Origin: an uncultured virus (IMG/VR IMGVR_UViG_3300026522_000958)
Lineage: Duplodnaviria; Heunggongvirae; Uroviricota; Caudoviricetes
IMG/VR virus record: IMGVR_UViG_3300026522_000958
Direction: 5' to 3' (one strand)
Length of the DNA: 64,000 nt
Shown here: positions 12,161-54,583 of the stretch, one piece after another
Layout: every line of letters starts with the position of its first letter
Numbering within the stretch: the first letter of the stretch is position 1
Position numbers and translations under genes: made by a program
Notes under the pieces: generated by a model
Told to the model about the DNA's origin: nothing
The model's input: the letters and a program-made list of their open reading frames with translations, nothing else
Databases searched by the model: none

Positions 12161-14290
12161 TCAATATCTTGCGTTCTTCTTTTTCATCTTCTTTGTGATG
12201 CTTTCCGGCATGCGGTAGCTTATCACGCCTTCCTTTATCATCTTCTGGGAATATTTCTCAGCCTTCTCGTCTCTTGCGAGTCTGCTCACCGGCTTCATGT
12301 CGTCACCTGTCACTCTGATGTGGTAATACCCGCTCTTGATGTTCGTCATGATATAGTTGTTGTTGTTCTCATCCGGCTGGTACTTGTACCAGAACGAGTC
12401 TGTCTGGAAAACGTCGTCCGTCTGAACATATCTGGTATACATCCACAGGTCATCCCTTTCAGGAAGGTTCGAGTCATATACATGGAAGTCCATTCTTCCG
12501 TCCTTATAGTCCTTGTAGCCTATGAGGAGTATCACATGACCTTTCTGTCCGTTCCTGTATTCCTTTGTTGAGGAATATTCAGTGCCGAGGGTTGATCCGA
12601 ACTCTACGACCTTTCCTTCATCTATCCTCTTCTTTGCGTATGTTATGACTGAATCATAGTCATACGGCGTTGCGCTGAATTTGTATCCGGCAGTTTCTCC
12701 GGATATGGCCTTTGAGTATGACCATGTGCTGTTTTTCTCTACCGAGTTATTCCACTTCGCCCAGTATATGGTCATCATGTTGGAAAATGACCTGTCGTCC
12801 GTATCAAGATCTTTATCGAAAATACCGGTCTTTCCCGTATGCCTGTCGATATACTCCTTATCCTGAAATGTCCCGATCTTTCCTTTTGTCCTGATGTTTG
12901 TAAATGTCCTGCCGGAGATATCCCACGGGGTATCTTCTTTTCTGTCAGACCACTTTCCGTCTCCTGTAAACGCAGGCGCGCTTCCCTTGTCATACAGGTA
13001 CATCGTATAGTATGAGATCCCGGCACATACACCTCCCGGGCTTATCTCTGTTCCGAAGTTTCCGAACGGGAGCGAGTCCTTTCCGATCTCAAATCCGCTT
13101 GATACGGTATCGCTGTTGATGTCCTTCTTATCATCTGCCGAAAGTTCTTTCGAGGCATTCGTATATCTGTCGAAATAGAAGAAAAGCTTCCACGGGCTGT
13201 CCTTGTCTCTTTTACCGTTGCACATCGGAAGGACGGTATCGAAAAACTTATACATGGCGTTTATCTGCCCTTCCTTCGCGGGCTTTATCTTATCAGACGT
13301 AGTATCCATGTCTGCTGTCTCTGCTTTTACAGCCTGCTTTACGAGTGTCTTCTTCTCTATGCCCTCGTCCTTGCTCGAATCCTGTTCGAGATACCTTACG
13401 TTAAGTTCTCCCGAGATCACATGGAGAAGAGGCGATCCGTATACGATGCCGTCAAGCTGTGTACCGGCTCCGCCATCGAATGTAGAACCGTAAGTGAAGC
13501 CTTTTGATACAGGAAGGGGAGAGAGTGTCTTATTGGTCACATATATACTGTAGATCTTAGTACGGTCAAAATCATATTTAAGTTCTGCTTTGTCAGCGCT
13601 GTGTATGGTGAATCTTACAGGCTTTGCATTCCCTTTGTTTGCTTCCCCGATATAGATCTTTACATCCGAATCCTTTACGTTGTCGTATTTCTTTAAGGCC
13701 TTTGAAAGATCGACCTTTACGGCTACTCCACAGTCTGAGATAAGGTACTCCTTATAGATCTTATGCCCTTTCAGCACATCCATGCCTGTCACGTCATCTG
13801 CTTTTGAGAAGCGGTCATCAGCAGTTTTTCCTTCGAATATCACGGCATTCTTCGTGTTGTTCCCGTAGTATACCGGACTGCCCTTGTATGAAGTCTTTTT
13901 TTCCAGGTCGAGGCCTTTTTCTACCTTTTCGCTGTCCGTATACATATCTCCTGCTGTTGATGCCTTCAGCGGATCTGAATGGTATACTTCTATCTCCTGT
14001 CTGTCAGTCAGACCGTCATGATCCGTGTCGGACCCGTCCATAGGGATGAGGCCCTTTTTGTACTTGTCGTACATACTCATGCCCTTTATATCAGACTTTT
14101 TCCCTGAGAGGGCTTCCTTTATGTCCTTTTCAGATCTGTACGACGGGTCGTCATATCCTTCGAGGACTTTGCCGGTCTTGTTCCTCCCGTCAGTTATCAT
14201 GGCAGCTATCCTGCCTGCTGCGAGCAGCCCTATGATGAGGAGGATTATGATCAGTATTATCTTTCTTCTTCTTTTTGCCTTCATGTGCAT
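12161..14290 (-). CDS. membrane-anchored protein with Ca-binding DxDxDG-like repeat and a putative papain-like cysteine peptidase domain
   Basis: N-terminal TM after KRRRK; SDTDHDGLTD; GVCAGIS ... GHVILLIGY ... VYDSN suggests a Cys-His-Asp triad; start placed at 14290 by the AGAGG RBS. Confidence 0.6.
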   Translation of the reverse strand: MHMKAKRRRKIILIIILLIIGLLAAGRIAAMITDGRNKTGKVLEGYDDPSYRSEKDIKEALSGKKSDIKGMSMYDKYKKGLIPMDGSDTDHDGLTDRQEIEVYHSDPLKASTAGDMYTDSEKVEKGLDLEKKTSYKGSPVYYGNNTKNAVIFEGKTADDRFSKADDVTGMDVLKGHKIYKEYLISDCGVAVKVDLSKALKKYDNVKDSDVKIYIGEANKGNAKPVRFTIHSADKAELKYDFDRTKIYSIYVTNKTLSPLPVSKGFTYGSTFDGGAGTQLDGIVYGSPLLHVISGELNVRYLEQDSSKDEGIEKKTLVKQAVKAETADMDTTSDKIKPAKEGQINAMYKFFDTVLPMCNGKRDKDSPWKLFFYFDRYTNASKELSADDKKDINSDTVSSGFEIGKDSLPFGNFGTEISPGGVCAGISYYTMYLYDKGSAPAFTGDGKWSDRKEDTPWDISGRTFTNIRTKGKIGTFQDKEYIDRHTGKTGIFDKDLDTDDRSFSNMMTIYWAKWNNSVEKNSTWSYSKAISGETAGYKFSATPYDYDSVITYAKKRIDEGKVVEFGSTLGTEYSSTKEYRNGQKGHVILLIGYKDYKDGRMDFHVYDSNLPERDDLWMYTRYVQTDDVFQTDSFWYKYQPDENNNNYIMTNIKSGYYHIRVTGDDMKPVSRLARDEKAEKYSQKMIKEGVISYRMPESITKKMKKKNARY

Positions 14291-14485
14291 ATACCTCTTT
14301 CGTGATGAATTATAACAGAATGTATGGGATCTGTCATTCCTTTTCCTCTGTACTCTATAGATATGGCAGATTACAGAGGTATGTTTTTTCATATATGAGA
14401 AATTGTTGTGGCGCTTCATTTTCCATATATGAAAATCGGGGGTAACTGATGTCTGATGTATTGGCAGGGGCAGGAAAATAACTAC

Positions 14486-14515
14486 AAAAAAGGAAGCCCC
14501 GATCTGAGGCTTCCT
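14486..14515 (-). terminator. intrinsic terminator of the DGR target gene
   Basis: GGAAGCC...GGCTTCC stem followed by a T-run on the minus strand. Confidence 0.7.
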
Positions 14516-14564
14516 CATGCCGGCTGTGCCGGTCTGTTTACTTATCTGTCAGATGTCTGCTGGA

Positions 14565-17500
14565 TCACTCATCGTCATCCGTATCGTCATCGTCGTCATC
14601 ATCGTCGATGTCATCATCGTCGATGTCGGCATCATAGTCGTTGGCTGATGCTGACTGCGGTTTCTTTGCCTTTACCATGTAAAGACCGCCGAGTGCTGCA
14701 AGTCCTGCGGCTGCCGCAACGAGGATGTAGATCCATGATGTGTTCTTTGGTTTCTTGTTTGAACCGTCATTTACTGTTCCTTCCGAGCCGCTTCCAAGGG
14801 AGTTGTCTCCATTGCCCGGTGTTGCAGTCGGATCCGTACCCTGGTCTCCTGATGAAGAAGATGTGCTGGTACTTGATGAAGATGCATCCGGCAGGTCGTT
14901 ATCGGAGCTGCTCTGTGTATCAGCGTCAGGTGTCGTTATCGTACCCTTGTTGTCCGTATCCGTCGGGGTTCCGCCCTGGTTGCCAAGGCTTACGCTTCCG
15001 TGGCTCTGGCTGTCATCTTTCTTGTCTGAGTCATTACTCTTTGAAGTATCTGTGACAGGTACGGTCTTTGTTACTGTCTGTACCTTTGTTACAGGCACTT
15101 CCTTGGTCACGGTTTTAACCTTAGTGACCGGTACCTGCTCTGTTACGGTCTGTACCTTTGTTACAGGTACTTTCTTTGTTATGGTCTTTGTTTTGCCGCT
15201 GTTCTTCCTGGCAGCTGAGAGCTGTTTCTTCAGGCTGCTGTTCGAAGACTTCAGTGACTTGTTTGTCTTGGCAAGAGAGCTGTTCTTCTCTGTCAGGCTC
15301 TCATTTGTTTCTGCGAGAGAACTGTTCTGCTCTGTCAGCTTGTCGTTTGTATCGCTTAGTGACTTGTTCTTGCTCGTAAGTGTTGCATTCTCAGTTGTGA
15401 GGCTTGCGATCTTTGCAGTATCCTCGGCTGATGTTCCGTTGCTCTTTGCGGCTGTATTGTACAGATCCTTGTAGGTGTCTGCCTGCGCCTTGTAAGTATC
15501 GGCCTGGGTCTGTGCAGCTGCGAGCTGTGCCCTGAGCGTTGTCACATCTGCTGTATCAGATGAGCTTCCGCCGTTATTACCGCTGCCATTGATCTTGCTC
15601 TGCAGTTCCGTGTTCTGTTTTGTGAGCTCTGCGATCTTATCGTTAAGGCTCTTTCTCTCGGTATCGGTGAGCGGGCTTCCGGATCCGTCAATCTTGTCAG
15701 ATACGGTCTTTGCGAATGCGTCAGGATCGCTTGCTACTGTTGTAGGATCAACTCCTGCCTTTTCGGCAATGGTCGTGATCGCTTTCTTGTCAGCCACGTA
15801 CTCGTTAGCCATTGTCGAAAGCGCCTCCTTGACCTCTGCTGCGCTCTTGCCCTTTACATCGATACCTGCAATGGATGCTACAGTATCGGCCACGTCCTTA
15901 TACTGTGATACCTGTGCGCCGAGAGAAGCCACATTGCCCTGGAGTTCTGTCAGCTTGTCGCCCTGCTCTTTGTTAGTCTTTGTAAGAAACTCGACCCGGG
16001 TATCAAGGGTATCTACCTGTTTCTGAAGGGCTGCCTGCTTTTCTTCAGCAGTAGCATTAGCATCGTTTAAGGTCTTATCGGCTTCTTCCTTTGCTTTCTT
16101 TGCTGCCTCGAGCTGTGACTGGATCTCAGCCTGCTGTTTCTGGGCTTCTTCGAGGTTCTCCTGGGCTTCTGCTGCACTCTTGTCGGTCTGATCCTTAAGA
16201 GCTTTGTAGTTCGCTTCAGCTGCGGCTGTCTTCTGCTTCTGCTCTGCGAGCTGGGCCTCTAAGGTATCGATCACATTTGAACCGTCAAGAGTCTTTAATT
16301 CATCCTCTGTAAGAGCCGGCTTGTCGTTTACCTTTACGGTAATGCTATCGCCTGAGTTCGGAGTCTTATCTCCTGTAGTGATACCGTCTACAACCTTGCC
16401 GTCCTTCGAGCCTTCATGCCACTTGCCGTCATCACCATATACATAGGTGCCTGCCGGCACATCATTTGTAACGGTCACATCACCTGTCGTGATGGTATCT
16501 GACTTTACATCACTTGCTACAGGACCTTTGCCGGCCTGGAGCTTTTCTATGACTGACTGGTACTGGCTTAACAGTGATGCATAGTCATCTGACTGTTTCT
16601 TTAGGGTCGTGATCTGTGCTTTCAGTGCTGCTACGTCGGTATCATCAGATACGCCGATCTGTGCCTTGAGGTCTTTGATCTGCTTTTCAAGGTCTGCTTT
16701 CTGGCTTTCAAGAGTCTCAACTGCACCAGACACATCGACATTTCCGTTATCATCGGTCTTCGGAGTGATGCCTGCTTCTGACAGCTTTTTGTTGATCGCG
16801 TCAAGCTGTGTCTGGAGCTTTGTTGCCTCAGCTTCCTTTGCCGTAAGGTCTGCCTGCAGCTTATCGTTTTTAGCCTGTGCATCAGATATGGCCTGTGTGA
16901 TCTTACTGAAATCACCGCCGTATACATCATTGAACAGATTGAACTCACTGTACTGCTTTACGGGGATCGTTACCTCGCATGTATATGTAAGCATTGATGC
17001 CGAATCATCCTGGTTCTGCTTTGCAAGATAGTAAGTTTTTCCGTCAGCCGTTATCGACTGAAGGACTACTACTGTCACGGTTACAGCCCCATTCTTTACG
17101 TCGGTATCGTTTACCTGTACACCGTCTTCATCCTTATAGAAGGCAAGCATCTTTTCGGTTTCGGCATCCTTTATGGTGTTGATGTTGCCTTCTGTCGTGT
17201 AGTTGGCAAAAGTCTTACCCTTTACCTCATCATCGTACTTCTGGCTTCTCATCACATAAAAATCTGATGACTTGTATGTGCCTTTTGCGTCAGCTCCATA
17301 GAGCTTGCGGACTGTCATGTTGTCCTTGTTTAAGGTAGATGCGTCTTTTGTCGCATTTGCTCCGCCAAGAAGAGTTGTACTGTATGATGCTTCGATGCCG
17401 GTCTGGTCATAGACATCGCCATCACCAAGGCCTTCCATTCCTTTGGTCGTTGTAGCGATATGCGTCGTTTCTGAAGATGCCTCGCCTTTTGAAAAAGAAT

Positions 17501-19700
17501 TGTTCGCTCCATTGTTGAAAGCATATACAGGACCAGAACCATTATTGAAAACCTGATCAGACTGAAGCCCCCAAACGTTAAGCTTGCCTGCGATACCGAA
17601 TGGAGAATAATATATACTGCCGTCCTGCTTGCAGTTAAAGATCGTGTCCTTGCCTAATGCGTAGGTGGTACGGTCTGCGACGGTCCCATTCGCTTCTGCC
17701 TGCTTTCCTGTCCATAAGGCATTTACCTGCTTTACATCTTCACCAAATATTACCCTTGACAGGTTTGGTGTATCGACGAAAGTATTGTCAGGTACTGTCG
17801 TGGCATCGATCTTGAGCTCAGTCAGCTGTTCGTTCTTTGAAAAAGCGTTGCTGTCAGCTTCCATCGTGGTGCCGGCAGGAATGTTGAGCTTCTGAATAGC
17901 ATCATTGTAGAATGCCTTTGTACCAATCTTTGTGCCGTTGCCTCTTAAGGTAACAGTCGTAAGTGTCGGGATGTTTGCAAATGCCGATTCGCCGATCGTA
18001 AGTTTACTTGCATCATCAAACTTTACTTCAGTAATGGTTGATCCATCAAAAGCGTGTTCTTCGATATTCTGTACAGTTGATGGAATCTCGACTTTTGCAG
18101 AAGCAGTATTTCCTGCAAAAGCGTAACCTCTGATAGCCTTTACAGAAGCCGGAATATAGATATTCTTCCATACAGTAGAGCCAGTAGCACCGTCTTTATC
18201 ATTAAGGAAGTTATGCTTTGATGAATCAGTACCGATACCTGCTACAGTAACACCATTGATCGTCGAAGGCACGTTTAGCGTCTTTGAAGAATCATTGGTT
18301 ACGAGTTTACCGATATTGGCACTTGATGCGTACAGATATCCGATCTGACCTGCGTCGTTATACAGGAAGTGCCACTCGATACCATTGCCATCATTTACAA
18401 CATAGTACCCTTCACTATCCTGTTTGATGTCCGTATTCGCAAGGATGCTTACATCCTTTGTCGTGCTGTAAGACCCGATGCTGAAGGTGATCTTATCTGT
18501 TATCGGTCTTGCTGTTCCAGGTACCTTGAACTTATCGCCATCGATATAGCCAAGCGAATCAGTTATCTTCATACCATCAATCGAGCTTGATGCGATATCT
18601 GAAAGGTCATATGTCTTTCCTGATGCAATATCGTCTGTTGTGACTGTAGTTGCCGAATCAGGGAGTCCTTTGACCGTAAGTTTTAATACCTTTGGTTTAA
18701 AGGATGGGTTATCGGCCGATGATACCGTAAGCGTATCAATATGGTCTTCTTTGGTGACAGCTGGTTTATAGTCCGTGCCTTCATTTACTATATAACCAAA
18801 ATCCGATTTGACCGTATACCTGTCAGTCGTACCCGTGACCTCGTTCGTGACATTTGCAGGCGCCACTATATCCTTTACCGCCGTGGTTTCCCAGCAATTC
18901 ACTGATTCTTTAGATAGGGTTGCCGTGATCGTAGTCTTATCAGCTCCGCTTATGTTAATCTGGGTCCCACTTGTGAGAGTTAATGGATTTTTTAGATTAA
19001 AAGCGGGAGCCACCGCATACGAGCCGCCGCGGCTGTCGCAGTAGCTGATGATGTTGACACCGCCCGCATAGACAAAGTAGGCGCAGTTCGTGCCGCCTGG
19101 CGACCCGAGCCACACATAGGAGCTGCCGGCGCGGTATACGCTCTGTGCCTGCCCTGCAAGTGTCTTATACAGGTTCAGCACCGGTGTACCGCCCTGTATA
19201 TTGCTATCAGATGTGCCTGTCGGTAGATATAATGTCCCGCTCAGCTCATTCCCGAGATATGTCACAAGTCTCTGGGTGTATTCATCATAGCTATTGATGT
19301 TTGTTGCATTATCTGATGTAGATCCATTATAATCAGATGCATAGTTTGATGAACTTGATGCCGCACCATTTTTTGTGCCAGCCCACGGACCCGCTGTAAG
19401 TCCGGTCGAGACGAACATCGATGTTCCATCGTCGTTATTCTTTACGCAGAGAGCCTGCATGTCTTTGCCGGCATTTGTTTTCATGCCATAAAAAGTGTAA
19501 GTCTGACCGGCTTCGAATGAATAACTGCCGCTTTTGCCCAGTACCGAGCTTGTCGTTGCGGCTTTTGCTGTTTCCTGTTTTGTCGGTACGAGCACATCAG
19601 CTATCCCGGCAGCGCCTAATACCATGCTTGCCGAAAGAGCGGCTGCAAGTACCGCATTGAGTGCCTTTTTACCTTTCGACACTCTTCTTTTAATCTTCAT
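14565..19700 (-). CDS. DGR target: 1711-aa cell-surface protein (signal peptide, variable CLec-like domain, BspA-type LRRs, coiled-coil stalk, C-terminal TM, Asp-rich tail)
   Basis: contains the VR; IPASVKAIRGYAF / IPSTVQNIEEHAF / LTIGESAF LRR_5-like repeats; heptad-rich stalk; TM WIYILVAAAAGLAALGGLYMV then KAKK. Confidence 0.9.
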   Translation of the reverse strand: MKIKRRVSKGKKALNAVLAAALSASMVLGAAGIADVLVPTKQETAKAATTSSVLGKSGSYSFEAGQTYTFYGMKTNAGKDMQALCVKNNDDGTSMFVSTGLTAGPWAGTKNGAASSSSNYASDYNGSTSDNATNINSYDEYTQRLVTYLGNELSGTLYLPTGTSDSNIQGGTPVLNLYKTLAGQAQSVYRAGSSYVWLGSPGGTNCAYFVYAGGVNIISYCDSRGGSYAVAPAFNLKNPLTLTSGTQINISGADKTTITATLSKESVNCWETTAVKDIVAPANVTNEVTGTTDRYTVKSDFGYIVNEGTDYKPAVTKEDHIDTLTVSSADNPSFKPKVLKLTVKGLPDSATTVTTDDIASGKTYDLSDIASSSIDGMKITDSLGYIDGDKFKVPGTARPITDKITFSIGSYSTTKDVSILANTDIKQDSEGYYVVNDGNGIEWHFLYNDAGQIGYLYASSANIGKLVTNDSSKTLNVPSTINGVTVAGIGTDSSKHNFLNDKDGATGSTVWKNIYIPASVKAIRGYAFAGNTASAKVEIPSTVQNIEEHAFDGSTITEVKFDDASKLTIGESAFANIPTLTTVTLRGNGTKIGTKAFYNDAIQKLNIPAGTTMEADSNAFSKNEQLTELKIDATTVPDNTFVDTPNLSRVIFGEDVKQVNALWTGKQAEANGTVADRTTYALGKDTIFNCKQDGSIYYSPFGIAGKLNVWGLQSDQVFNNGSGPVYAFNNGANNSFSKGEASSETTHIATTTKGMEGLGDGDVYDQTGIEASYSTTLLGGANATKDASTLNKDNMTVRKLYGADAKGTYKSSDFYVMRSQKYDDEVKGKTFANYTTEGNINTIKDAETEKMLAFYKDEDGVQVNDTDVKNGAVTVTVVVLQSITADGKTYYLAKQNQDDSASMLTYTCEVTIPVKQYSEFNLFNDVYGGDFSKITQAISDAQAKNDKLQADLTAKEAEATKLQTQLDAINKKLSEAGITPKTDDNGNVDVSGAVETLESQKADLEKQIKDLKAQIGVSDDTDVAALKAQITTLKKQSDDYASLLSQYQSVIEKLQAGKGPVASDVKSDTITTGDVTVTNDVPAGTYVYGDDGKWHEGSKDGKVVDGITTGDKTPNSGDSITVKVNDKPALTEDELKTLDGSNVIDTLEAQLAEQKQKTAAAEANYKALKDQTDKSAAEAQENLEEAQKQQAEIQSQLEAAKKAKEEADKTLNDANATAEEKQAALQKQVDTLDTRVEFLTKTNKEQGDKLTELQGNVASLGAQVSQYKDVADTVASIAGIDVKGKSAAEVKEALSTMANEYVADKKAITTIAEKAGVDPTTVASDPDAFAKTVSDKIDGSGSPLTDTERKSLNDKIAELTKQNTELQSKINGSGNNGGSSSDTADVTTLRAQLAAAQTQADTYKAQADTYKDLYNTAAKSNGTSAEDTAKIASLTTENATLTSKNKSLSDTNDKLTEQNSSLAETNESLTEKNSSLAKTNKSLKSSNSSLKKQLSAARKNSGKTKTITKKVPVTKVQTVTEQVPVTKVKTVTKEVPVTKVQTVTKTVPVTDTSKSNDSDKKDDSQSHGSVSLGNQGGTPTDTDNKGTITTPDADTQSSSDNDLPDASSSSTSTSSSSGDQGTDPTATPGNGDNSLGSGSEGTVNDGSNKKPKNTSWIYILVAAAAGLAALGGLYMVKAKKPQSASANDYDADIDDDDIDDDDDDDDTDDDE
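15050..15370 (-). repeat. intragenic tandem repeats in the target stalk
   Basis: VPVTKV(Q/K)TVT 12-aa units and LxExNxS 7-aa units. Confidence 0.75.
18998..19132 (-). repeat. DGR variable repeat (VR)
   Basis: aligns to 21392..21521 with 22 substitutions, all at TR adenines, plus 6 extra nt and a 1-nt indel at the 3' end. Confidence 0.95.
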
Positions 19701-19817
19701 AAGCTTTTTCCTTTCTGCCTCATAAGAGACGGCTGAATTAAATCACTCTGTTTTATGTAAAAAGGCGTAAGCCTGTGCCTACTCCAGGCTGCCTTCTTTT
19801 TTGTACTCATGTACGAT

Positions 19818-21209
19818 CTACCAGAAGTCTCCGGCTGACTCGGGATACGTATCCCAGTCGATGTTTCTTAACCCCAACGGGTTCATCTTTCCTTTGTAGA
19901 ACACCTCGTACTCTCCGTCGAACGCCTGATATCTCTGGAGCATCTTGTGCGTGAGCGAGAATCCTTCTGTCCCTTTCGAAAAGTATGCGATAGTGCCGTT
20001 CCTCATCTGGATAAATTTTTCCATAGGGATATGCCCCTTTCCATAAGCTTCATACTGCTTATCAAGGCGGTGGAACTGTTCGCGCTTCTTCGTGTTCTTC
20101 TCAACGCATTTTATATGACCGAACCGGTCCATCTCATAGCGCCATCCGCAGAAGTTTATGCCTCTTGATATCGGATATATATTGGTCTTTTTATCATTGA
20201 GCCTTATTCCCATGTCATTCTTTGCAATAAAGTCTTCTATGTACCACAGGATCCTTCTTGCGTCCGCTCTGTCTGCCGCAAAGCAGAGACCGTCATCCAT
20301 ATATCTCCTGTCCTTTATGCACTCTTCCACAAGGTCATTGAGCCTTATGTCAAGCTCGTTTAAGAGCATCACACCCGTCCACTGGCTCGGCAGGTTGCCT
20401 TTCGGCACTCCATACCATTCGCCACTCCCAGCGTGGTCTCTTGCTGCGTAGCACTCTTCATCTTTTTCTGTCAGATGATAGCTGCATAGGATCATCCAGA
20501 GCAGATACAGTGCAAAGCTGCATATCCCGTACCCCGCAAACAGGTGGTAGACAAAAGTATGTGAGATGTTATCAAAGTACTTCTTTATGTCATACTGCAC
20601 AATGTAGCAATCATATCCGTATGCCTCGTACATCTGATAAAGATCTTCCATCAGGATGTCACGGGTCATGTCGGGCCCTTTTCCTTCCTGGCATGCCAGG
20701 TTGTACTTAAAGATCTGCGGCGTGAGCACAGGTATGAAGTACTTTTCTATGAGCCACTGCTCGACTATCCTGTCAACGTAGTACGGTGCATTTATGAGTC
20801 TTTCGGGATGATGTACTTTAAAAGGGAAGTACCCTTTCACTCTCCATGATCCCGTAACGATCGCTGTTGCTACCTGATCGAGGATATATGCTGCATCCAG
20901 CGAGAACTCGTAGGCTTCTTTCGTAAGCCTCTTGTCCTTTATGCGTCTCTTGTATACCTCGTAGAGCTCGTTGAATGTTGTCTGTGCGTATCTCTCCACT
21001 TCTCCGGGGTCCTCGACAGGCTTCCATCTGCCTGTCATCAGGTCTATGTGCCCTGCTATCTCAAGGTCTCTGTTTTTACCCGCCTTATGCGGTACACCTC
21101 CCGGGAGGATGATATATCCCGCCGGTACGATCTTTTCGATCCTTGCGATCTGATCTCCGGTTTTCTCGGGAAGCTCTATGCCCTGCGCTTCTTTTATGAT
21201 ATCTGTCAT
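19818..21209 (-). CDS. DGR reverse transcriptase
   Basis: RLINAPYYVDRIVE, YDIKKYFDNISH, GVPKGNLPSQ (DGR-type G.P.GN..SQ), RYMDD, NFCGW; no maturase or endonuclease domain seen. Confidence 0.93.
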   Translation of the reverse strand: MTDIIKEAQGIELPEKTGDQIARIEKIVPAGYIILPGGVPHKAGKNRDLEIAGHIDLMTGRWKPVEDPGEVERYAQTTFNELYEVYKRRIKDKRLTKEAYEFSLDAAYILDQVATAIVTGSWRVKGYFPFKVHHPERLINAPYYVDRIVEQWLIEKYFIPVLTPQIFKYNLACQEGKGPDMTRDILMEDLYQMYEAYGYDCYIVQYDIKKYFDNISHTFVYHLFAGYGICSFALYLLWMILCSYHLTEKDEECYAARDHAGSGEWYGVPKGNLPSQWTGVMLLNELDIRLNDLVEECIKDRRYMDDGLCFAADRADARRILWYIEDFIAKNDMGIRLNDKKTNIYPISRGINFCGWRYEMDRFGHIKCVEKNTKKREQFHRLDKQYEAYGKGHIPMEKFIQMRNGTIAYFSKGTEGFSLTHKMLQRYQAFDGEYEVFYKGKMNPLGLRNIDWDTYPESAGDFW

Positions 21210-21391
21210 CGTGCTTCTATCTTCTTAAAAATTTATTCATCATCCATATAGCCGTGATATCCACTCTACATGGAGAACCGACGGGCGGAAACCTTTTAAT
21301 CTGCCGGCGTACTCAGTCAGACCAATGATATCTGCCTTTCTGCTGCACCCACCCGCAGGAGGATGCTTCCGGGCTTACCCGTAAGGCTTCG

Positions 21392-21521
21392 TAAAAGCGG
21401 GGAGCCACCGCATACGAGTTGTTGCGGTTGTTGTTGTTGTTGTTGACACCGCCCGTATTGACATAGTAGGCGTTGTTCGTGTCGTTTGGCGACCCGAGCC
21501 ACACATAGGAGTTGTCGGCGC
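21392..21521 (-). repeat. DGR template repeat (TR)
   Basis: AAC-rich (13 AAY codons, ~35 A) copy of the VR between the avd-like gene and the RT. Confidence 0.95.
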
Positions 21522-21765
21522 TTGAACCACCCAGCCGTAAATGTTTTTATGAGCATCCGGCTCCTGTTATCGGGGGTCTTTTCACGAATGCTGCAACAAC
21601 AACTCCGCAACATCCGTATATGGAAAGTCGTTCCCGCTCATTTCGAAGTCATTCGGGGTGTCCTCTCTCGTGATATTTCCTGATATGTCTGCCTCTGTAT
21701 ATCGATATCCTGCCTGTCATCGTGCGTACCTCCTTTTTTCTTACCTGCTGTTGTCCTGTTCTTTA

Positions 21766-22449
21766 TCATTTACGGCTGTCATCAGCCTTTTCTTCTTCTA
21801 TCTCTTTTAAGACATCTGCAAGCAGCGTGTAATCTTTTGTCATCTTTGAGTACAGGTCTCCCTGTGCTTTGTCAAATCGCTGTCTGGCTTCTGTCATCCG
21901 TTCATACCGTACTCTTGACAGGGATTCTGCCATATCAAGTGCCTCCGATGCCTTTTCTCCCGGATGTCTCTTACCATATCCTTTTATGGCTTCTTCATTT
22001 TTCAGAGCCTCCTTGTAGTCGCTTACTGCTTTCCTGTATGCCTGTTCATCGTATGATGTTTTCTTTTTCAGGTCTGATACGTACCAGTTGTATAGCGGCT
22101 GTTTCAGGTTCTCTAGCATCTTTTCGAGCATTCCCTGCTTCTTCGTGCCTGTATATGCAAGTCTGCATGCAGGATCAAGAAGTGTCTGTATCTCATCTCT
22201 CAGACCGACTGCTCTGTACTGCGCCTGCAGTCTCGGAATACTCCCTGCTTTAAGACGGTTAGCCCTGTCCACGAGATACATCATCTCTTCCGTTTTCTGC
22301 CTTATATCCTTTATTATCCCGTCACGGTACTGTCTGTCAGCGTTTTTCATAGCCTCGCATAAGGCATACAGGAACTTACCGCAGTCCGATGCGATACGGA
22401 ATTCGTGGTTTTTATATTTGTCAGGCATAGGCTCATTCCACCAGTCCAA
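21766..22449 (-). CDS. avd: Avd-like DGR accessory protein with a ~100-aa C-terminal helical extension
   Basis: position directly upstream of TR-RT; helical N-terminal ~125 aa (YR..I...I....RAN.....RL..Q...W) resembles the bAvd four-helix bundle. Confidence 0.7.
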   Translation of the reverse strand: MDWWNEPMPDKYKNHEFRIASDCGKFLYALCEAMKNADRQYRDGIIKDIRQKTEEMMYLVDRANRLKAGSIPRLQAQYRAVGLRDEIQTLLDPACRLAYTGTKKQGMLEKMLENLKQPLYNWYVSDLKKKTSYDEQAYRKAVSDYKEALKNEEAIKGYGKRHPGEKASEALDMAESLSRVRYERMTEARQRFDKAQGDLYSKMTKDYTLLADVLKEIEEEKADDSRK

Positions 22450-22729
22450 GTGTCAGAGTATTCGGTTCCGGCTTTACGCTGCTGCGACCCCTGCTAAGGT
22501 ATTCTGCCAGTCCGCTATCTCCTTTGATATCATATCCGGTGCCGCTTTTATCCATAAGTCCTGACACTTTGTCAAGTGCTTCTATCGGGAACCCGCATTT
22601 TTCTGTTATCTGTCCGTGCCATTTCGTGATCATGAGTCTGTATCCAGTGATCTTCGAAAGCTTCCGGGCATCATCTCCGTATGCATGAAGGAAGATTCCT
22701 TCCTCATACAGCTGTATGCGTTTATCCAT
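22433..22729 (-). CDS. MutS domain-I-like (MSL) DGR accessory protein
   Basis: IQLYEEGIFLHAYGDDARKLSKITGYRL...CGFP resembles the MutS N-terminal mismatch-binding domain; overlaps the avd start. Confidence 0.7.
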   Translation of the reverse strand: MDKRIQLYEEGIFLHAYGDDARKLSKITGYRLMITKWHGQITEKCGFPIEALDKVSGLMDKSGTGYDIKGDSGLAEYLSRGRSSVKPEPNTLTLGLVE

Positions 22730-23083
22730 AAACCTCCTATTAATCCCTACATCTATGATTTGGGAGAATGTCCCCTTTCTGGAACGGCTTCAGGGCTCTC
22801 CGATGCAGTTCCTAAAAGATTTGGGCGACAGTGTTTTTTCGATATGAGGTTTTCGTATATGGGAAATTCTGAACGTCAGGGGGCGTCCGTGCTCCCGGCT
22901 CACGAAGTTTTTCATATATGGAGAATAGAACCCTGCAGCCTCCGGGGACCTGCCCGGGGCTGTCTGTTTTTCACGGCCCGTGGTTTTCCCATATATGAGA
23001 TTCTTCAGTACCCCGGTCTGCCAAATCTCATATAACTTGAGCATTCATCACATCGGCCTTTTTATAAGGCAAAGGAGGTATTT

Positions 23084-28659: not shown

Positions 28660-28778
28660 TGTCATTATAGTGCCATCATGTGTCATTAGATCGTCACTGA
28701 TTGTCATTAAAGTGACAACGTGTGTCAACATATCACCACCGATTGTCATTGAAGCGACAACGTGTCATTATGTTGCCA
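28660..28778. repeat. cluster of TGTC-N8-G(A/C)CA palindromic boxes
   Basis: boxes start at 28660, 28702, 28744 and 28763, plus a degenerate one at 28681. Confidence 0.7.
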
Positions 28779-29469: not shown

Positions 29470-29548
29470 TTATGCCGGAGCAGACAGTAGTCTGGCCGGA
29501 AGCAGAATTGGAATGAAAAAGGCCCCGCATTGCGGAGCCTGTAACTGG

Positions 29549-30652
29549 TCATATCAGGAAATCTCTTTCCTTTTTATCTTTCGTTTTCTTCTGTCTCTCC
29601 CGGTACTGGTCTTCAAGGCCGTTATCTCTGATAACTTCTTCAGCAGCTCTTAACCGTTCTGCCATCCTTGCAGGATCTGTCAGCTTTGGGATCTCATTCT
29701 TATAATATTCCGTGACAAGGATCTCGAATCTCTTATACAGACGTTCTTTTCTTGCCCGCCTGACTGTCTCATCATACTGCCCGTTGAACATCGGATTTAA
29801 GAGCAGATCTTCCATAGCTCCGACTGCTTCCCTTATATCGCTGTCTTTCGGCAGATCTTCAAGCTCTTTTTTTCTTGCATCTATTTCCTGTTCCAGATGG
29901 TTTACAGTCTTTCTCTGTCTTTCGATCTCTTCATCCAGTTTCTTTGCCTTGAATTCCTTGAGCGGCAGGGATCGCCGTCTTGATGAATCTGGTTCTTCTA
30001 TCTCAATCCCTTTGCTTCGGCATATCTGTCTGAAGATCTCATTATCCTCGTATGTGAATGTTATCTTTGCATTGTTGTATTTGTTGACAGGCGATTCTGC
30101 ATCAGGGGGAAGTACCCCCATCTCATTTAGGGCCTTACCCTGGCTTACACATAACTCTCCATGACTGTTGTGTCCCATCCATACACGTCTTACATGTACA
30201 TGCGGGGCAGTACCTGGTTCGTCGAGATGAAGGGACATGTCAAGTATCTTACAGTGATCACCGTATTTTTCATTGAATCTTTTCTGATATTCGAGAGCAC
30301 ACTCCCAGAGTACTTCAGGCTCGGGATGGTCATCAACGTTGCCTATCTCAAGTATCTTGTCCTCAGGACGCGTGTTTTTCGCATCGTGATACTGTTTCAT
30401 CGTCTTCACGAGCTTTTTCTTGTTCATATCCCTGTACCGGTTGTTCTGGTTCGACCTGTATTCGCCGAATGTATCTTCGTAGTATTCCAGTTCTGCTTCC
30501 CTGAACGATCTTGAAGTATCTCCGTCATAGACCCAGTACTGGTTTCTCTCTACCAGATCCTTGTCTATATGTGGAGCCTTTGTTACGTCGAAGTTCCTGT
30601 CGTTGTGACGACCTGATGAGTCAACCCTTGCATTATGGTTAGAAGCCCTCAT
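29549..30652 (-). CDS. MobV/Pre-type relaxase (plasmid recombination enzyme family)
   Basis: HNDR ... HID....RN.YW motif, HLDEPGTAPHVH HUH motif and C-terminal coiled coil. Confidence 0.8.
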   Translation of the reverse strand: MRASNHNARVDSSGRHNDRNFDVTKAPHIDKDLVERNQYWVYDGDTSRSFREAELEYYEDTFGEYRSNQNNRYRDMNKKKLVKTMKQYHDAKNTRPEDKILEIGNVDDHPEPEVLWECALEYQKRFNEKYGDHCKILDMSLHLDEPGTAPHVHVRRVWMGHNSHGELCVSQGKALNEMGVLPPDAESPVNKYNNAKITFTYEDNEIFRQICRSKGIEIEEPDSSRRRSLPLKEFKAKKLDEEIERQRKTVNHLEQEIDARKKELEDLPKDSDIREAVGAMEDLLLNPMFNGQYDETVRRARKERLYKRFEILVTEYYKNEIPKLTDPARMAERLRAAEEVIRDNGLEDQYRERQKKTKDKKERDFLI

Positions 30653-32500
30653 TTAACCCTCCTTCTTTTCATCCCGTCTGTAGATGTACCTGTACTCCAT
30701 CTCATGGGTATCTTCGTTGTATCCTGTGATCTCTGATATCTCCTGTACCTTGAAGTCCTGGAGATAGACTATCGTCTGGAAACTTTTGAGCATTCTCTTT
30801 GCATCGTTGTAGTCATTTGCATATCCTCTCATTGCAAGGTCGGCCATCTTGTCTATGGTCTCCGTTGAAGAGGGGGAGTGGATGGTTATCGCAGTCCGGC
30901 ATCCTGAGTTGGAGAGTGTGATCGCAGAACATATTTCAGCTCCCTTCGCCTCACCGATGACAAATACATTCGCACCTGCAACAAGTGCCAGCTGGCCTAA
31001 CTGCTCAAGGGTTACTGCCTGTTTGCCGTCGATCGAGTAATTCACCACATGCTGGAACATAACACCTTTCCTGTATTCAGGTGTTTCAGGAGAATATGCA
31101 AACAACTCGTCGTTTTCCTGTATGACAAGGATCTCAGCGGACTCTTCGTAGGCTTCTTCAAGAAACCAGTTCAGGGCGACGGTCTTACCGGAACCCGGAG
31201 GACCGGCGAATACCACGCCCCTGCTGTTCTTTCCGCAGTCAAGAAGATAATCCCTTACTTTCTCATCAAACATTCCTGCTTTTATAAGATCAGGACCCAG
31301 AAGCTTGTGCCTTGCGATCTTCCTTATGTGCAGGTACGGGTAATCAACAGAATTTACATATTCGGCTGTTATAGAAAACCTCAGTATGTAGTTCTCATCG
31401 TGCGTATCCGTAAAGGTCTGTTCTGGAACATTAAGTTTGATGCCGTTTCTTACGGCGATAGCGTCGATAAAGCGGATGTAGTCGTTTTCATCAACGAAAT
31501 GCACGTTTGACAGATACGCGTCTCCTTTTATCCTTACCCTTATGGATTCGGGTGCGGTTATCTTGATGTCCGTGATGTTCGGGTCGTCTATGAGATCCTG
31601 CACTATATAGAGCTGATACAGTGCTCTGTACAGTTTGTCTATCATCGCCGGGTAATCCTCTGACGGCAGTATCCTCTCATCGACATATTTTTTCTGCACA
31701 TGAGCCTTGAGTATCGACATAAATTCATTTTCCGCATCACGGCTTTTGAGTGAAAGCATATACTGATAGCGCTCTATTCCCGTGACCCAAATCATGATAC
31801 GGGAAAAGATGCCGTAGAACTCATCGTATGAACATACCGTTTTTGTCTGCTGGTCCTTTGTCCTGAGATCGTATATGAGATCCATGTGATCTTCGGGATG
31901 TGGGAGCTCCTTAGGCTCATACTTGTCTATACGGTTTAAGAACGGCAGTTCCTTTGTTGCACTTTCAAGAGCCTTTTTTTGTTCTTTTTCTATCTCGTCA
32001 TGCTTTTTTATCTGTTCTGGCGTATAGTGGAAATTCTTTATACTGTCCGGGATGATAAGACTGCCCTCGGTCGGCTTATTGTCCTCTACTATGGTCACAA
32101 GCTTATCCCCGGTATAGTCAAAGAATTTCTTAAAGTCAAACTGTCCGCTGTACTCTCTCAGGAGCATCACGAGAACAAGGTGTCTTCCCTTCATGCCCGC
32201 CTGTATCGAGAGTATGTCGCAGTCAAAACCTTCCTGCTCCGATACGAACTGATCTGCCATACGGCACAGCTGCCTTGCACCGATCGTTGTTCTGTGCCTG
32301 CCGATGTATATCTGAAGGGGCGTTGCCCATGCCCCTTTTCTGTCTTTTATTATCGTTTCTGCTATCTCAGTATACGGTGTATTTTCTTTAGCCCAGGGCA
32401 TCTGTTCGACCGCCCCCTTGTCGCGGAACTTGTCTTCTGCCTTCTTAAGGGAGTCGACATCCTTTATCACGTAATGTTTCAGGTTTATCTCTTTCTGCAT
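30653..32500 (-). CDS. VirB11/CpaF/TadA-family secretion ATPase
   Basis: LIDDPNITDI, LHIRK, GPPGSGKT (Walker A), IQENDEL (Asp box), VIGEAKGAE, TIHS (His box). Confidence 0.85.
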   Translation of the reverse strand: MQKEINLKHYVIKDVDSLKKAEDKFRDKGAVEQMPWAKENTPYTEIAETIIKDRKGAWATPLQIYIGRHRTTIGARQLCRMADQFVSEQEGFDCDILSIQAGMKGRHLVLVMLLREYSGQFDFKKFFDYTGDKLVTIVEDNKPTEGSLIIPDSIKNFHYTPEQIKKHDEIEKEQKKALESATKELPFLNRIDKYEPKELPHPEDHMDLIYDLRTKDQQTKTVCSYDEFYGIFSRIMIWVTGIERYQYMLSLKSRDAENEFMSILKAHVQKKYVDERILPSEDYPAMIDKLYRALYQLYIVQDLIDDPNITDIKITAPESIRVRIKGDAYLSNVHFVDENDYIRFIDAIAVRNGIKLNVPEQTFTDTHDENYILRFSITAEYVNSVDYPYLHIRKIARHKLLGPDLIKAGMFDEKVRDYLLDCGKNSRGVVFAGPPGSGKTVALNWFLEEAYEESAEILVIQENDELFAYSPETPEYRKGVMFQHVVNYSIDGKQAVTLEQLGQLALVAGANVFVIGEAKGAEICSAITLSNSGCRTAITIHSPSSTETIDKMADLAMRGYANDYNDAKRMLKSFQTIVYLQDFKVQEISEITGYNEDTHEMEYRYIYRRDEKKEG

Positions 32501-32506
32501 CAGTGC

Positions 32507-34081
32507 TTATCCTTTCTGTACGATATAGTCAACGCTCGAACTGCTCACATACTTGTCTGGAAGGCCCGTGTATCCGATCGTGTACGTTTTCCCACCTTCG
32601 ATATTGCACTGTGCCTGATAAACGCCATAGTCTGTCCTCTCGAACCGTACAGCACTTGAGTCAGGACCGCCATCCTCTGAAGGTACTGTGTAGAATATCG
32701 CGCTGAAATCTTTTATCTCTTCTTCATTGTTCTGGTCGATGCCTTCGATAGTGAACGTGACTGTCGCCATACCACTGCCGTCGAACTGTATCGTAACGCT
32801 GTCTCCGTACTGACCTGTATCGATCGATTGTGTCTGCTTTTTGTCAGTATTGTTCTGATCTGTCTTCTTGTTAGGGTTGTTGAGCACTGTGTTCTTGTTG
32901 TAGGCGTTGCCGTTTATATACCTGAATACTCCTTTGCCGTTTATCATATAATAGCCGGAATTAAACCATGACGGGATATTTACATCTACAACAGTTCCGT
33001 TGCTTCCTTCTTCGTAGGCATAGTCTGTAGAAATATAATCATCCATTGAGCCTAAGATGCGTGTATCGCACTTAAAACTGTATTCTTTTCTCTTTGTCCC
33101 GCCATATACGACTGTCTGGTATTTCTGACCGTAGCGCAGGCCTTTTATCGTCCCGTAACGCGTAACCATTTCAGAGCTTACATCATCTTTATCTGTGCTC
33201 TGCTTTGCCGACTGGCTTTCGGTGTTTTCATTATCAGACTCTTCTTCACTGTTCGTGCCGCTGCTGTCCACTGTATATGAAGAGCCAGCGTCGCCAGAGT
33301 TGTTATCATATGTCTGTCCGTCGTTGTAATATTCAGTATCTCCATCATCGGATGGGGCTGCCACATAATCCGTCCTTGACGGCACATTTCCCGTGTCCGT
33401 TCCGGTCTCAGTCGTACCATCTGATACATCGTCGCTTGAAACACTTACTTTCTCAGATGTATCCGAAGGTTTTTTATAGAGCCTCTTGTTCCCGACCATT
33501 TCGACGATGACGGAATCATTCTCACTGTCGTTTATGATCTTGTCCGTGTCCCCTCCCGGATATGTAGTCGTGGTCTTTTTGCCTGTCTCGATATAATATC
33601 TCCCAGTCACGTTCGGGGTAAGGCCGTTTATGCCAATCGAATATCCGAGATCCATAAATCTCTCGAATTCGAACTGACCGCTGAAATTGGCTTTTGAGTA
33701 ATATATGAGCTTGTCACCCTTGCCTGTTATGAGTGTAGGGATCTTGTTGATGTCATCCTTGTACCACAGGACTCTTGTGTATCTTTCCTTCACAATGCTC
33801 TGGTTCTCATCTCTGCTTGGCTCTTTTGCGCTTGTATCATCGGAATCATCCGAATCGTCATCTTTTGCACTGAACGACCCGGTACCGAAATAGACCTGAT
33901 CGTATGTACCATCCTTGTGCGCCACATAATATCTTCCGTCTATCAGTTCTTCTTTTTTAACTCCCTGCTGGAATACTTCCTTTTTACTGTCTTTACTGCT
34001 GCTCCCACATGCTGATACGGATACCGCCATCGCGGATGCAAGCATTATGGCCAGTGCTTTTTTAGTGCTGCCTTTCATCAC
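32507..34081 (-). CDS. lipoprotein
   Basis: lipobox VSAC-GS after a basic/hydrophobic signal peptide. Confidence 0.75.
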   Translation of the reverse strand: MMKGSTKKALAIMLASAMAVSVSACGSSSKDSKKEVFQQGVKKEELIDGRYYVAHKDGTYDQVYFGTGSFSAKDDDSDDSDDTSAKEPSRDENQSIVKERYTRVLWYKDDINKIPTLITGKGDKLIYYSKANFSGQFEFERFMDLGYSIGINGLTPNVTGRYYIETGKKTTTTYPGGDTDKIINDSENDSVIVEMVGNKRLYKKPSDTSEKVSVSSDDVSDGTTETGTDTGNVPSRTDYVAAPSDDGDTEYYNDGQTYDNNSGDAGSSYTVDSSGTNSEEESDNENTESQSAKQSTDKDDVSSEMVTRYGTIKGLRYGQKYQTVVYGGTKRKEYSFKCDTRILGSMDDYISTDYAYEEGSNGTVVDVNIPSWFNSGYYMINGKGVFRYINGNAYNKNTVLNNPNKKTDQNNTDKKQTQSIDTGQYGDSVTIQFDGSGMATVTFTIEGIDQNNEEEIKDFSAIFYTVPSEDGGPDSSAVRFERTDYGVYQAQCNIEGGKTYTIGYTGLPDKYVSSSSVDYIVQKG

Positions 34082-36588: not shown

Positions 36589-36609
36589 ATTAACCTCCTT
36601 TAGGATAAA

Positions 36610-49286: not shown

Positions 49287-49289
49287 GTG

Positions 49290-53215: not shown

Positions 53216-54583
53216 GTGAAAGGGTTGTTCATGACTGAATTTATGACTGAAGAGGAAAAAGTAGCTGTTGCAGTAGAAGAAGAAAAGAACGCGATGGTGC
53301 GGAAGGATAACACCATCATCACGGCAAAGTACAAATCCCCGCTGCTCGAAAACCAGCTCACAAGCATATGCATATCAAGGGCAAAAGAGCAGAACGGGGA
53401 GTACATAGCTACCGTCACGTCCTCTGAATTAAAGCACCTGTTCTCCATGAATGACAGCAATTCGAAGATATACAAGAGGCTGTACTCGGTCGCAAAGAAC
53501 ATGGCAGGTCGTACCATATCAGCAGAGGACGGGCATGGAAACTTTACTGTGATAAGCGTGATACAGGAAGCAAGGTACAAGGACGGCGTGTTCTCAGTAC
53601 TGTTCTCGAAGAACATGAAACCGCTCCTGTTTGACCTTCAGGGCAAATATACATCATACGCTCTTGCTAATATCTTAAACTTCAAGAGTGACTACTCATT
53701 CAGGATTTATGAGATAATCCGTAAAGAGGCTTTCCGCATAACTAAGAAAGCCCCGGTAGTTACTATAGGCTACGGTCTTTCAGAGTTCAAATGCATGATC
53801 GGGATGGTAAACATGGAGTCAGACCGCATAAAGAAAGCCCTGCAGGAAAGCCCTGTTGACTGGGACAAGATAGTAGAGATGGCTCCCGAGAAGTCATACG
53901 AGAACTGGACGGATTTCAGGAGATATGTCATAGACAAGGCAAGAGATGAGATCAGATCGCAGTGTGATGTATGCTTTGACTATTCGCCCATAAAAGAAGG
54001 ACAGGGATCAAGGGTGGTCGGCATAAAGCTCTTTATCATGAAGAACGATGTCGTAAACGCAGACGTTGACATAAAAGAGCAGGGTATCAAGAAGCTCAAT
54101 GAGGAATATGCCGGGTCATACAAGCCGTCACCGGAGCTTGTTGCGATGATAGGGCACAATGACTTAAAGAAGAGTGACCTTATGATGTTCCTTGATGATG
54201 CAGACGGTGACAATGAACTTGTCCTTGATGCCATAAAGAAGGCAGACGGACAGGAGAGGATAAATAACTACATCGGCTGGATAAGGTCATGCATAAGAAG
54301 CGGCGGATATAAAGAACAGGCCGTAGCAGTCGAATTGGGATCAGCCGAAGCTGCAAGGAGCAGTGACGCACTGAATAAAGAGCTGGAGAAAGATGCGGAT
54401 AAGTTCTATGAAAGCTACTGGAACAGAGTCAAGGAAGGCAGACAGGAGAAATTCGTGGAATTTGAGCAGTTTCTTTCAGGCAACAGCTTTACCGTGGATA
54501 TGCTCGAAGCCATGTATTCACCGGCACAGTGCGGAGATATGTTTATAAGATGGGTAAAAGGCGAAAAGATACAGCTAATGTAA
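53216..54583 (+). CDS. plasmid replication initiator (Rep_3/RepB family)
   Basis: NTIITAKYKSPLLENQL, FSKNMKPLLFDL..KYT.Y, FKSDYSFRIYE, FRRYVIDKARDEI. Confidence 0.85.
   Translation: MKGLFMTEFMTEEEKVAVAVEEEKNAMVRKDNTIITAKYKSPLLENQLTSICISRAKEQNGEYIATVTSSELKHLFSMNDSNSKIYKRLYSVAKNMAGRTISAEDGHGNFTVISVIQEARYKDGVFSVLFSKNMKPLLFDLQGKYTSYALANILNFKSDYSFRIYEIIRKEAFRITKKAPVVTIGYGLSEFKCMIGMVNMESDRIKKALQESPVDWDKIVEMAPEKSYENWTDFRRYVIDKARDEIRSQCDVCFDYSPIKEGQGSRVVGIKLFIMKNDVVNADVDIKEQGIKKLNEEYAGSYKPSPELVAMIGHNDLKKSDLMMFLDDADGDNELVLDAIKKADGQERINNYIGWIRSCIRSGGYKEQAVAVELGSAEAARSSDALNKELEKDADKFYESYWNRVKEGRQEKFVEFEQFLSGNSFTVDMLEAMYSPAQCGDMFIRWVKGEKIQLM

Follow-up and report, generated by a model that had tools for sequence, protein, structure and literature searches.

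The question raised by this locus is whether a diversity-generating retroelement (DGR) borne on a plasmid-like replicon is complete and still at work, and what the long surface protein that it varies might do. The locus lies in a window of 64,000 nt (the whole stretch of DNA that was analysed) from IMG/VR record IMGVR_UViG_3300026522_000958, a piece of large plasmid-like DNA from a cattle gut bacterium. The cassette is read on the minus strand in the order MSL (a MutS_I-like accessory gene), avd, template repeat (TR), reverse transcriptase (RT) and target gene, the last of which contains the variable repeat (VR; Table 1). Open reading frames (ORFs) and repeats were rechecked and the order and coordinates given in a preliminary description of the sequence were found to be correct; its view of the DGR as complete was borne out, the repeats, RT, avd-like and MSL-like ORFs all being intact. 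The evidence set out below makes it probable that this is an active DGR which varies the tip adhesin of Lachnospiraceae-type conjugative elements, here on a megaplasmid-like replicon.

A plain alignment of TR and VR contained 19 substitutions, all 19 of them at TR adenines (14 to G and 5 to T; probability by chance about 3e-13), together with a 6-nt gap and a 1-nt gap. Opposite the (AAC)6 of the TR stand eight NNC codons in the VR, and the TR has an extra C near its 3' end. When the two additional VR codons were treated as derived from AAC, 22/22 changes fell at adenines (15 G, 7 T, 0 C). The 22 sites of the preliminary description were reproduced in this way, although the 6-nt and 1-nt indels had been omitted from it. 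In-frame indels beside AAC runs are described by Wu 2018 (PMC5758913) and ascribed there to slippage, and length differences were also found in two relatives (L003 and L014, +3 and +6 nt). The 3' end of the VR is GC-rich and carries a 1-nt difference from the TR; an initiation of mutagenic homing sequence (IMH in VR, IMH* in TR) may lie there. No second VR was found within the 64-kb window.

Four of 24 listed public runs were compared with the window as assembled contigs, for presence only. Flanking contigs from two runs (X1 and X2; 631–3802 nt compared) had 0 differences to the window, and contigs ended at 19023, 19099 and 19127, each of which adjoins a TR-adenine site (19024, 19098 and 19126). 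As the longest exact word common to TR and VR is at most 25 nt, these breaks are not due to the repeat. An X2 contig continues for 21 unlike letters beyond the break, and in X1 a contig of depth 96 lacked 6 nt at 19034–19043, representing a VR variant of TR length. A contig from pig gut (X6) also broke, at 19022. X4 had no contig cover over the head region and was not used as evidence.

Related loci were collected by a search with an RT alignment, which yielded 42 metagenome and 11 genome loci, 41 of them in one clade with the window; a single-sequence RT scan of GTDB genomes was too weak (47 candidates, none true) and the alignment query was needed. TR/VR pairs were detected in 27/41 clade loci, most of the others being short contigs, and in 27/27 the VR starts at aa 152–345 of the gene behind the RT. 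Eighteen of these 27 targets are complete (1762–2289 aa), seven run off the contig and one (L025) stops at 675 aa near a contig end. In L010 (11605–11744) a G-run and a 1-nt insertion in the VR cut the target at 246 aa, either a frameshift made by the DGR or an assembly error. In three distant DGRs of this set the VR is C-terminal. Identical TRs were shared within four groups of loci, and in each group all VRs were different; with the gapped pairs L003, L010 and L014 left out, 25/26, 22/23, 26/26 and 17/19 of the variable VR columns fell at TR adenines. In the L007 group, 4/4 VRs were distinct and each 300-nt flank held 2 variable columns. Named members of the clade are Butyrivibrio, Lachnoclostridium and Eubacterium metagenome-assembled genomes (MAGs), and the lineage was found in gut assemblies of cattle, pig, goat and human; the locus is, to judge by its RT, a member of a gut Lachnospiraceae-type lineage.

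The lineage was sought in other collections as well. No RT relative was found among 19 candidates from viral contigs (IMG/VR), and the TR/VR core pattern had zero exact matches in viral contigs. PLSDB contained no close RT (best about 27%), 2 matches at LRR (leucine-rich repeat) level only for the first 933 aa of the target, and no match for the 785-aa neighbour of the target. In a family-wide search of sampled, often incomplete genomes, 1/401 carried the lineage, and this was the seed itself.

An RT tree of 23 rows (L013 was dropped) separated a 13-row clade with the window, termed 'short-head', from a 7-row sister clade plus L045, termed 'long-head'. R137, K270, SQ and YMDD were invariant in the RT alignment, and the invariant arginine is presumed to be the equivalent of Arg74 in the Bordetella RT (bRT). 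The signature motif reads KGNLPSQ in the window, so that SQ is kept and the first residue is K, not I/V/L; the signature described for DGR RTs is [I/V/L]GxxxSQ, and Ile181 of bRT promotes adenine mutagenesis (PMC7826257). The lysine was present in 88/88 RT homologues and in 38/41 clade loci (the other 3 are cut short), the latter count being biased because the locus scans used patterns holding this motif. Distant DGR RTs from the same locus set have isoleucine at this position. The K motif is thus an apparent variant of the lineage, mutagenesis being evident regardless. The RT of L045, a Butyrivibrio member, has YADD instead of YMDD, yet its VR carries 16 adenine changes. A further relative (L032:9356–12014) is decayed; it lacks avd, TR and the 5' part of the RT, and an RT remnant follows another ORF while the start of the target is kept.

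The subclades differ in their mutation spectrum. A>C accounted for 2/135 changes in short-head and 30/191 in long-head loci, counts which are not independent as the loci are related; for bRT in vitro, A>C is given as 11.6 of 51.6% (PMC7826257). The K motif was considered as the cause of this deficit and rejected, because both subclades have K and only one is deficient in A>C. They differ also in Avd, which had a C-terminal extension in 7/7 short-head and 0/4 long-head sequences aligned. The model of the avd-like product of the window (predicted local distance difference test, pLDDT, 88) shows a four-helix core (aa 1–120) followed by a C-terminal helical hairpin of ~90 aa. Its top fold matches were 2gsc (Z 15.5), 2rld (Z 13.8) and the DGR protein bAvd, 8ub7_B (Z 13.7, 115 aligned, root-mean-square deviation (rmsd) 3.6), and Avd-family chains, including 4dwl Avd (Z 12.9), took ranks 1–3 and 10. 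Helical bundles generally score high in such a search, but rank, gene position and a pI of 9.0 agree with Avd, and the modelled fold identifies the product as a probable Avd accessory protein. The Avd of the window had no Pfam/NCBIfam hidden Markov model (HMM) match and was also missed in a PDB sequence search, whereas a sister-clade homologue (L027) matched bAvd with E 7.9e-5. MSL homologues lie upstream of avd in many related loci, that of L017 scoring E 4.8e-7; Wu 2018 (PMC5758913) describes MSL as an accessory gene co-occurring with avd.

The third difference lies 3' of the VR. In 6/6 long-head loci the 81 nt after the VR ranked first among sampled gene windows for folding (z −3.9 to −5.5 relative to synonymously recoded sequence). 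Two hairpins, the structure of which was taken from one of the 7 sequences compared, were 96% paired across all 7 and had changes on both sides in 6/12 pairs; the long-head clade thus has covarying hairpins within coding sequence. The same 81 nt had a stable fold in 0/4 short-head loci tested. A stem pairing with the IMH, seen in the window (z −2.0) and in L006 (z −2.1), was not accepted, being absent in L001 and L007. The window has no strong hairpin after the VR that might act as a cis signal for retrohoming. Roux 2021 (PMC8144416) attributes the near-universal C-terminal position of VRs to a need for intergenic cis signals, and the lineage offers a natural comparison for that account, with hairpins inside the coding sequence in one subclade and diversification in their absence in that of the window; it further combines a lysine at the RT position matching bRT Ile181 with a skewed mutation spectrum.

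The length mismatch between TR and VR, the missing strong hairpin and the atypical RT motif could all be taken to mean that the cassette is a fossil, its TR having shrunk by two codons and variation being no longer driven. This is very improbable and already largely refuted. Contigs break beside adenine sites and a VR variant of TR length is present in the same run, the ORFs are intact, and the L007 group, with the same motif and equally without the hairpin, has its four distinct VRs. The preliminary description held that an invariant VR together with a dead RT would mark a fossil; variation was seen, and YMDD and the Arg74 equivalent are kept. The DGR of the window therefore looks active, as far as sequence comparison can tell.

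The target consists of a signal peptide, a head, two immunoglobulin (Ig)-like domains, BspA-type LRRs, coiled coils, a Ser/Thr-rich linker, a transmembrane (TM) helix and an acidic tail. Its hydrophobic stretches lie only at the N-terminus and at aa ~1656–1676, and it contains no LPxTG motif. Placement of the VR at aa ~190–234, with ~1480 residues to follow, was confirmed along with the LRRs, coiled coils and TM stretch. A structure model was made of aa 46–420 (pLDDT 84), the head being modelled with the Ig pair. All listed fold matches covering the head are C-type-lectin-like domains (CTLDs), the best being the N-terminal domain (NTD) of IgAse, 9qa6 (Z 7.8, 156 aligned, rmsd 3.6), followed by LLT1 (Z 5.9), Lcl (5.7), SP-A (5.4) and CD72 (5.3). 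The DUF6273 clusters of the atlas gave 0.96 for the head, with a recognition score under the threshold of the tool. The comparison with CLec and DUF6273 folds proposed in the preliminary description supports a lectin-type head, at middling Z. Foldseek recognised only the Ig pair in the head-Ig model, and PDB sequence searches of the target were dominated by LRR and coiled-coil matches. The fold matches listed for the head did not include Mtd or TvpA, which does not exclude a likeness to them.

Nine full-length homologues of the target are mosaics when identity to the window is taken by segment: aa 49–189 are 22–71% identical, aa 421–930 76–96%, and the stalk either 88–94% or 27%. One of them (P0091) is 93–98% identical in signal peptide, body, stalk and tail but 40% in the head. 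Heads are therefore exchanged between near-identical bodies, and domain swapping forms a second layer of variation. Three homologues (P0094–P0096) share the LRR body with the window, but their stalk is another one (27% identity) and an additional domain lies close to the membrane. The X1 and X2 runs also hold abundant contigs which are ~82–86% like the LRR body (16866–18614) and do not resemble the RT region; these are related surface genes, possibly without this DGR.

The exchange of head, Ig pair and stalk, seen among 10 homologues, resembles antigenic mosaics, and the stalk is weakly like M protein, a match of generic coiled-coil kind. Both would suit a tip that varies against secretory IgA or phage attachment, whether as antigenic variation, decoy or surface exclusion. 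Such evasion or shielding is improbable: the DGR varies a single hairpin of a lectin binding fold carried by a conserved scaffold, as expected of a site that binds a ligand, and does not target the ~1480 further residues.

Beyond the observed repeats, adenine specificity, variation, domain layout and association with conjugative elements, the active tip adhesin would operate as follows, the retrohoming chemistry being carried over by analogy from BPP-1. RT and Avd would reverse transcribe the TR RNA, making errors at adenines that yield chiefly G or T and rarely C, and slipping occasionally within the AAC run. The cDNA would replace the VR and so rewrite the beta-hairpin of the N-terminal C-type-lectin head, within a sequence space of about 1e20, or about 1e16 without A>C. 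The protein would be exported via its signal peptide and held by its C-terminal membrane helix, so that an Ig-LRR-coiled-coil rod would carry the head on its outer end, past the cell wall. The preliminary description had likewise placed a variable head distally on a stalk anchored by its C-terminus, and the model, fold matches and TM helix support it. The target is a likely adhesin by its domains, and its variable head may bind a glycan or protein on the surface of other cells, of feed particles or of host mucus, with the benefit going to the mobile element that carries it.

The window has Rep3, ParA, TopIII, a TadA/VirB11-type ATPase (30653) and a relaxase-like ORF. The best plasmid matches of Rep were 243-kb plasmids of Roseburia sp. 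831b (36%) and Butyrivibrio fibrisolvens; Rep3, ParA and these Lachnospiraceae megaplasmid matches bear out the plasmid-like replicon suggested earlier. Of the relaxase and VirB11/CpaF ATPase named in the preliminary description, the ATPase stood, while the relaxase was weak by HMM (MobV, E 0.0087) but had as its best plasmid match MobA of Butyrivibrio proteoclasticus pCY360 (E 4e-30). The best plasmid match of the ATPase was also on pCY360. In a Butyrivibrio MAG (G001) the cassette lies behind genes for ParAB, relaxase, TadA ATPase, VirB4, NlpC/P60, VirD4, TopIII and DUF5688, all in the same orientation, and an integrase adjoins chromosomal genes at the opposite end (50/51 ORFs scanned); by gene content this is apparently a full integrative and conjugative element (ICE). 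Besides RT and target, nine ORFs of the window have homologues on the G001 contig, by table or as Pfam equivalents: the 785-aa neighbour, the ATPase, a lipoprotein, ParA, TopIII, an HD protein, DUF5688, an IS200 transposase and a second DUF5688 (Pfam). Lineage members thus appear tied to conjugative elements of two replicon types, ICE and Rep3 megaplasmid. An SNF2/methylase gene precedes the cassette in 21/22 relatives with at least 6 kb upstream, and is lacking in the window.

The adhesin might serve mating, the DGR tuning which recipient is gripped by the donor, as a Gram-positive counterpart of the IncI shufflon and PilV. The tie to two types of conjugative replicon, the co-directional position behind the transfer genes of G001, the lack of an IMG/VR relative and the single carrier among the sampled family genomes all speak for this, as does a precedent in pLS20, in which an adhesin with an N-terminal head is needed for conjugation (PMC8092201); head swaps among near-identical bodies would be expected if partner surfaces vary. 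Selection of recipients by the tip is plausible on these sequence data, and a mating role as such is a tentative proposal, on the doubtful side. In the Bacteroides ICE the DGR-diversified pilin bfrT was dispensable for transfer (10.1101/2024.11.15.621889), a cassette placed behind the SNF2 gene, on the margin of the transfer region, would occupy the usual position of cargo, and in the window ~7 kb with unrelated genes separates it from the relaxase-ATPase cluster.

It is quite possible, though short of probable, that the gene is instead a cargo colonisation factor which the element only spreads and whose head binds mucus of the host, glycans on plant particles or neighbouring microbes. BspA-type LRRs and lectin heads are typical of adhesins (Roux 2021, PMC8144416), the Bacteroides elements supply a precedent (10.1101/2024.11.15.621889), and the lineage occurs in the guts of several hosts, as listed above. 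Slowly changing ligands of host or feed fit hypervariation less well, an argument also put forward in PMC10743442, and restriction to conjugative elements would be left unexplained. The fullest form of the mating proposal, in which a dedicated ICE/megaplasmid DGR lineage hypermutates its own mating adhesin to track recipient surfaces, and one subclade retrohomes mid-gene without a hairpin, with an extended Avd, a K-motif RT and almost no A>C, is unlikely as a whole. If true, it would be the retroelement equivalent of a shufflon for Gram-positive conjugation, where recipient recognition is little understood, and a hypervariable tip adhesin on gut ICEs and megaplasmids allows a direct test of the influence of DGRs on the host range of gene transfer.

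Several findings weigh against an active tip adhesin of a conjugative element. The fold after the VR of the window has z +1.3, reaching −2.0 only with the IMH included, and the RT signature begins with K instead of the described I/V/L. The fold scores of the head are middling (Z 7.8 at most) and come from a model of head and Ig pair together, and a Pfam/NCBIfam profile search gave no Pfam DUF6273 match for it. A scan of 44 ORFs of the window found neither VirB4 nor VirD4. X1 is possibly the source sample and the flanks in X2 are identical, so that the two are perhaps not independent, and the contig data show the presence of variants only.

The coordinates of the cassette and of other features are collected in Table 1. 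A hairpin loop and an AAAGG motif comparable to those 3' of the TR were read by eye in the 12 loci folded. The 785-aa neighbour matched G001:C77 (tblastn, E 4e-50) and had weak matches, under cut-off, of TSP3-type Ca-binding and C39-like kind.

Table 1. Features of the DGR cassette, its target gene and the surrounding replicon
Feature	Coordinates	Strand	Basis or remark
MSL (MutS_I-like) accessory ORF, 98 aa	22433..22729	−	MutS_I E 8.5e-4, slightly under cut-off
avd-like ORF, 220–227 aa	21766..22449	−	220 aa from ATG at 22428
TR, 130 nt, 36 adenines, (AAC)6 run	21392..21521	−	IMH*-like 3' end, one extra C
TR 3' spacer: TTACGG-loop hairpin (~21373–21387), then AAAAGG motif (~21292–21297)	21270..21391	−	Putative role
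DGR RT, 463 aa, YMDD, KGxxxSQ	19818..21209	−	RVT_1 E 2e-11
Target gene, predicted 1711-aa surface protein	14565..19700	−	Domain and hydrophobicity searches
Signal peptide, aa ~1–48, ending AKA	19557..19700	−	Basic N-terminus and hydrophobic stretch; putative cleavage site
DUF6273-like C-type-lectin head, aa ~49–250	18951..19556	−	Predicted fold, matches all CTLD-type
VR, aa 190–234, lectin beta-hairpin	18998..19132	−	TR/VR alignment; strands E163–166 and E169–172 in model
Two Ig-like beta-sandwich domains, aa ~253–420	18441..18944	−	Model and fold matches
BspA-type LRR core, aa 512–611	17868..18167	−	LRR_5 E 1e-31; BspA/TpLRR/PcpA structures matched
Coiled-coil stalk, aa ~935–1500	15201..16898	−	Coiled-coil and SMC-type matches of low specificity
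C-terminal TM helix, aa 1656–1676; then basic residues and Asp-rich tail	14673..14735	−	Hydrophobicity
785-aa membrane/surface protein, directly downstream of target	12161..14518	−	Homologue in transfer region of related ICE
Lipoprotein-like ORF, TadA/VirB11-type ATPase, MobV/MobA-like relaxase	29549..34081	−	ATPase and lipoprotein homologous to related ICE
Rep3 replication initiator	53216..54583	+	HMM match; ParA at 34783–35547

Other features of the replicon were observed. The palindrome CATATATG, often as TTTTCATATATGGAAAA, occurs 38 times in the window against 1.5 expected, mostly near gene boundaries, with none in the DGR cassette or target and 0–2 in each related ICE locus; it is probably a replicon-wide promoter or regulator site. 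Right downstream of the relaxase-like ORF (28658–29475) are repeat arrays of TGTC-N7/8-GACA type with 21-, 26- and 42-nt spacing, a candidate oriT or protein-binding array, and immediately before parA (34299–34742) is a very AT-rich tract with 12-nt periodicity, a candidate centromere-like site. Upstream of the DGR, a 41-nt inverted repeat (93%; 23014–23054 and 24458–24498) surrounds three small ORFs. Both arms lie in front of a gene start, which favours a duplicated promoter over an invertible segment. The window also has two genes for TnpB/IS605 OrfB (6439–7572 and 61318–62974), one of them accompanied by an IS200 tnpA, and a perfect 26-nt inverted pair at 2065–2090 and 62988–63013. Cargo of megaplasmid type (8272–9297, 36004–41233, 48020–50252 and 57729–60557) includes RuvB, thymidine kinase, RecJ, TopIII, a C5 methylase with an NgoFVII-like restriction gene, and a class A penicillin-binding protein.

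Literature searches, in which subscription journals and supplements were thinly covered, found no paper on this DGR lineage of conjugative elements; the Hodor megaplasmid preprint (PMC12934698) and the iLund4u preprint concern phage DGRs in the text available. An N-terminal VR is uncommon but already published, in tentaclins and by Wu 2018, and both N-terminal lectin VRs (in phage tentaclins) and ICE-borne DGR adhesins (in Bacteroides) are on record. Distinctive here are the KGxxxSQ RT, the Avd with a 90-aa extension, the near absence of A>C, the lack of a hairpin downstream of the VR and the mosaic heads.

Tentaclins have an N-terminal DUF6273 lectin VR followed by 1–4 Ig domains (Baykov 2023, PMC10743442), and the target resembles them, and the Lineage 1 form 'Ig1, internal VR' of Wu, in its N-terminal DUF6273-like head with VR beta-hairpin and subsequent Ig-like domains. 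Tentaclins are, however, described as phage proteins of 313–649 aa with a C-terminal anchor Ig domain, and bacterial tentaclin-like forms reach 1445 aa (PMC10743442) against 1711 aa here. The target has instead a signal peptide, LRRs and a long coiled coil, and ends in coiled coil, low-complexity linker, TM helix and acidic tail; its cassette includes MSL and belongs to an apparent conjugative element, and no RT relative was found among the 19 viral-contig candidates. Wu 2018 lists AVD-TR-RT-TG cassettes with internal VRs, the arrangement seen here, and 6 plasmid DGRs (PMC5758913).

The DGRs of Bacteroides ICEs (Macadangdang, 10.1101/2024.11.15.621889) share the conjugative element and a CLec adhesin displayed away from the cell, a display that is predicted here, but as described they place a C-terminal VR at the tip of a Gram-negative type V pilus, whereas the present protein would be a single-chain Gram-positive stalk with an N-terminal VR. 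The Bordetella BPP-1 DGR (Mtd, bAvd, bRT) is matched in avd-TR-RT order, adenine-specific changes, Avd fold, YMDD and the presumed Arg74 equivalent, and differs from the present system in KGxxxSQ, the A>C deficit of the window's subclade, the Avd extension and the lack of a clear GC hairpin after the VR. The TIE adhesin of pLS20 (PMC8092201) and PilV of the IncI shufflon are element-encoded adhesins of the mating-pair tip, a likeness in role only and hypothetical here; they have other folds, and the specificity of PilV is diversified by inversion, not by retrohoming. IgAse of Thomasclavelia ramosa (9qa6, PMC12237041) likewise carries an N-terminal CTLD on a C-terminally anchored Firmicute surface protein. 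It is a peptidase with a dispensable NTD, to which the available part of that paper assigns no function and for which it mentions no DGR. The shared fold indicates no ligand for the head.

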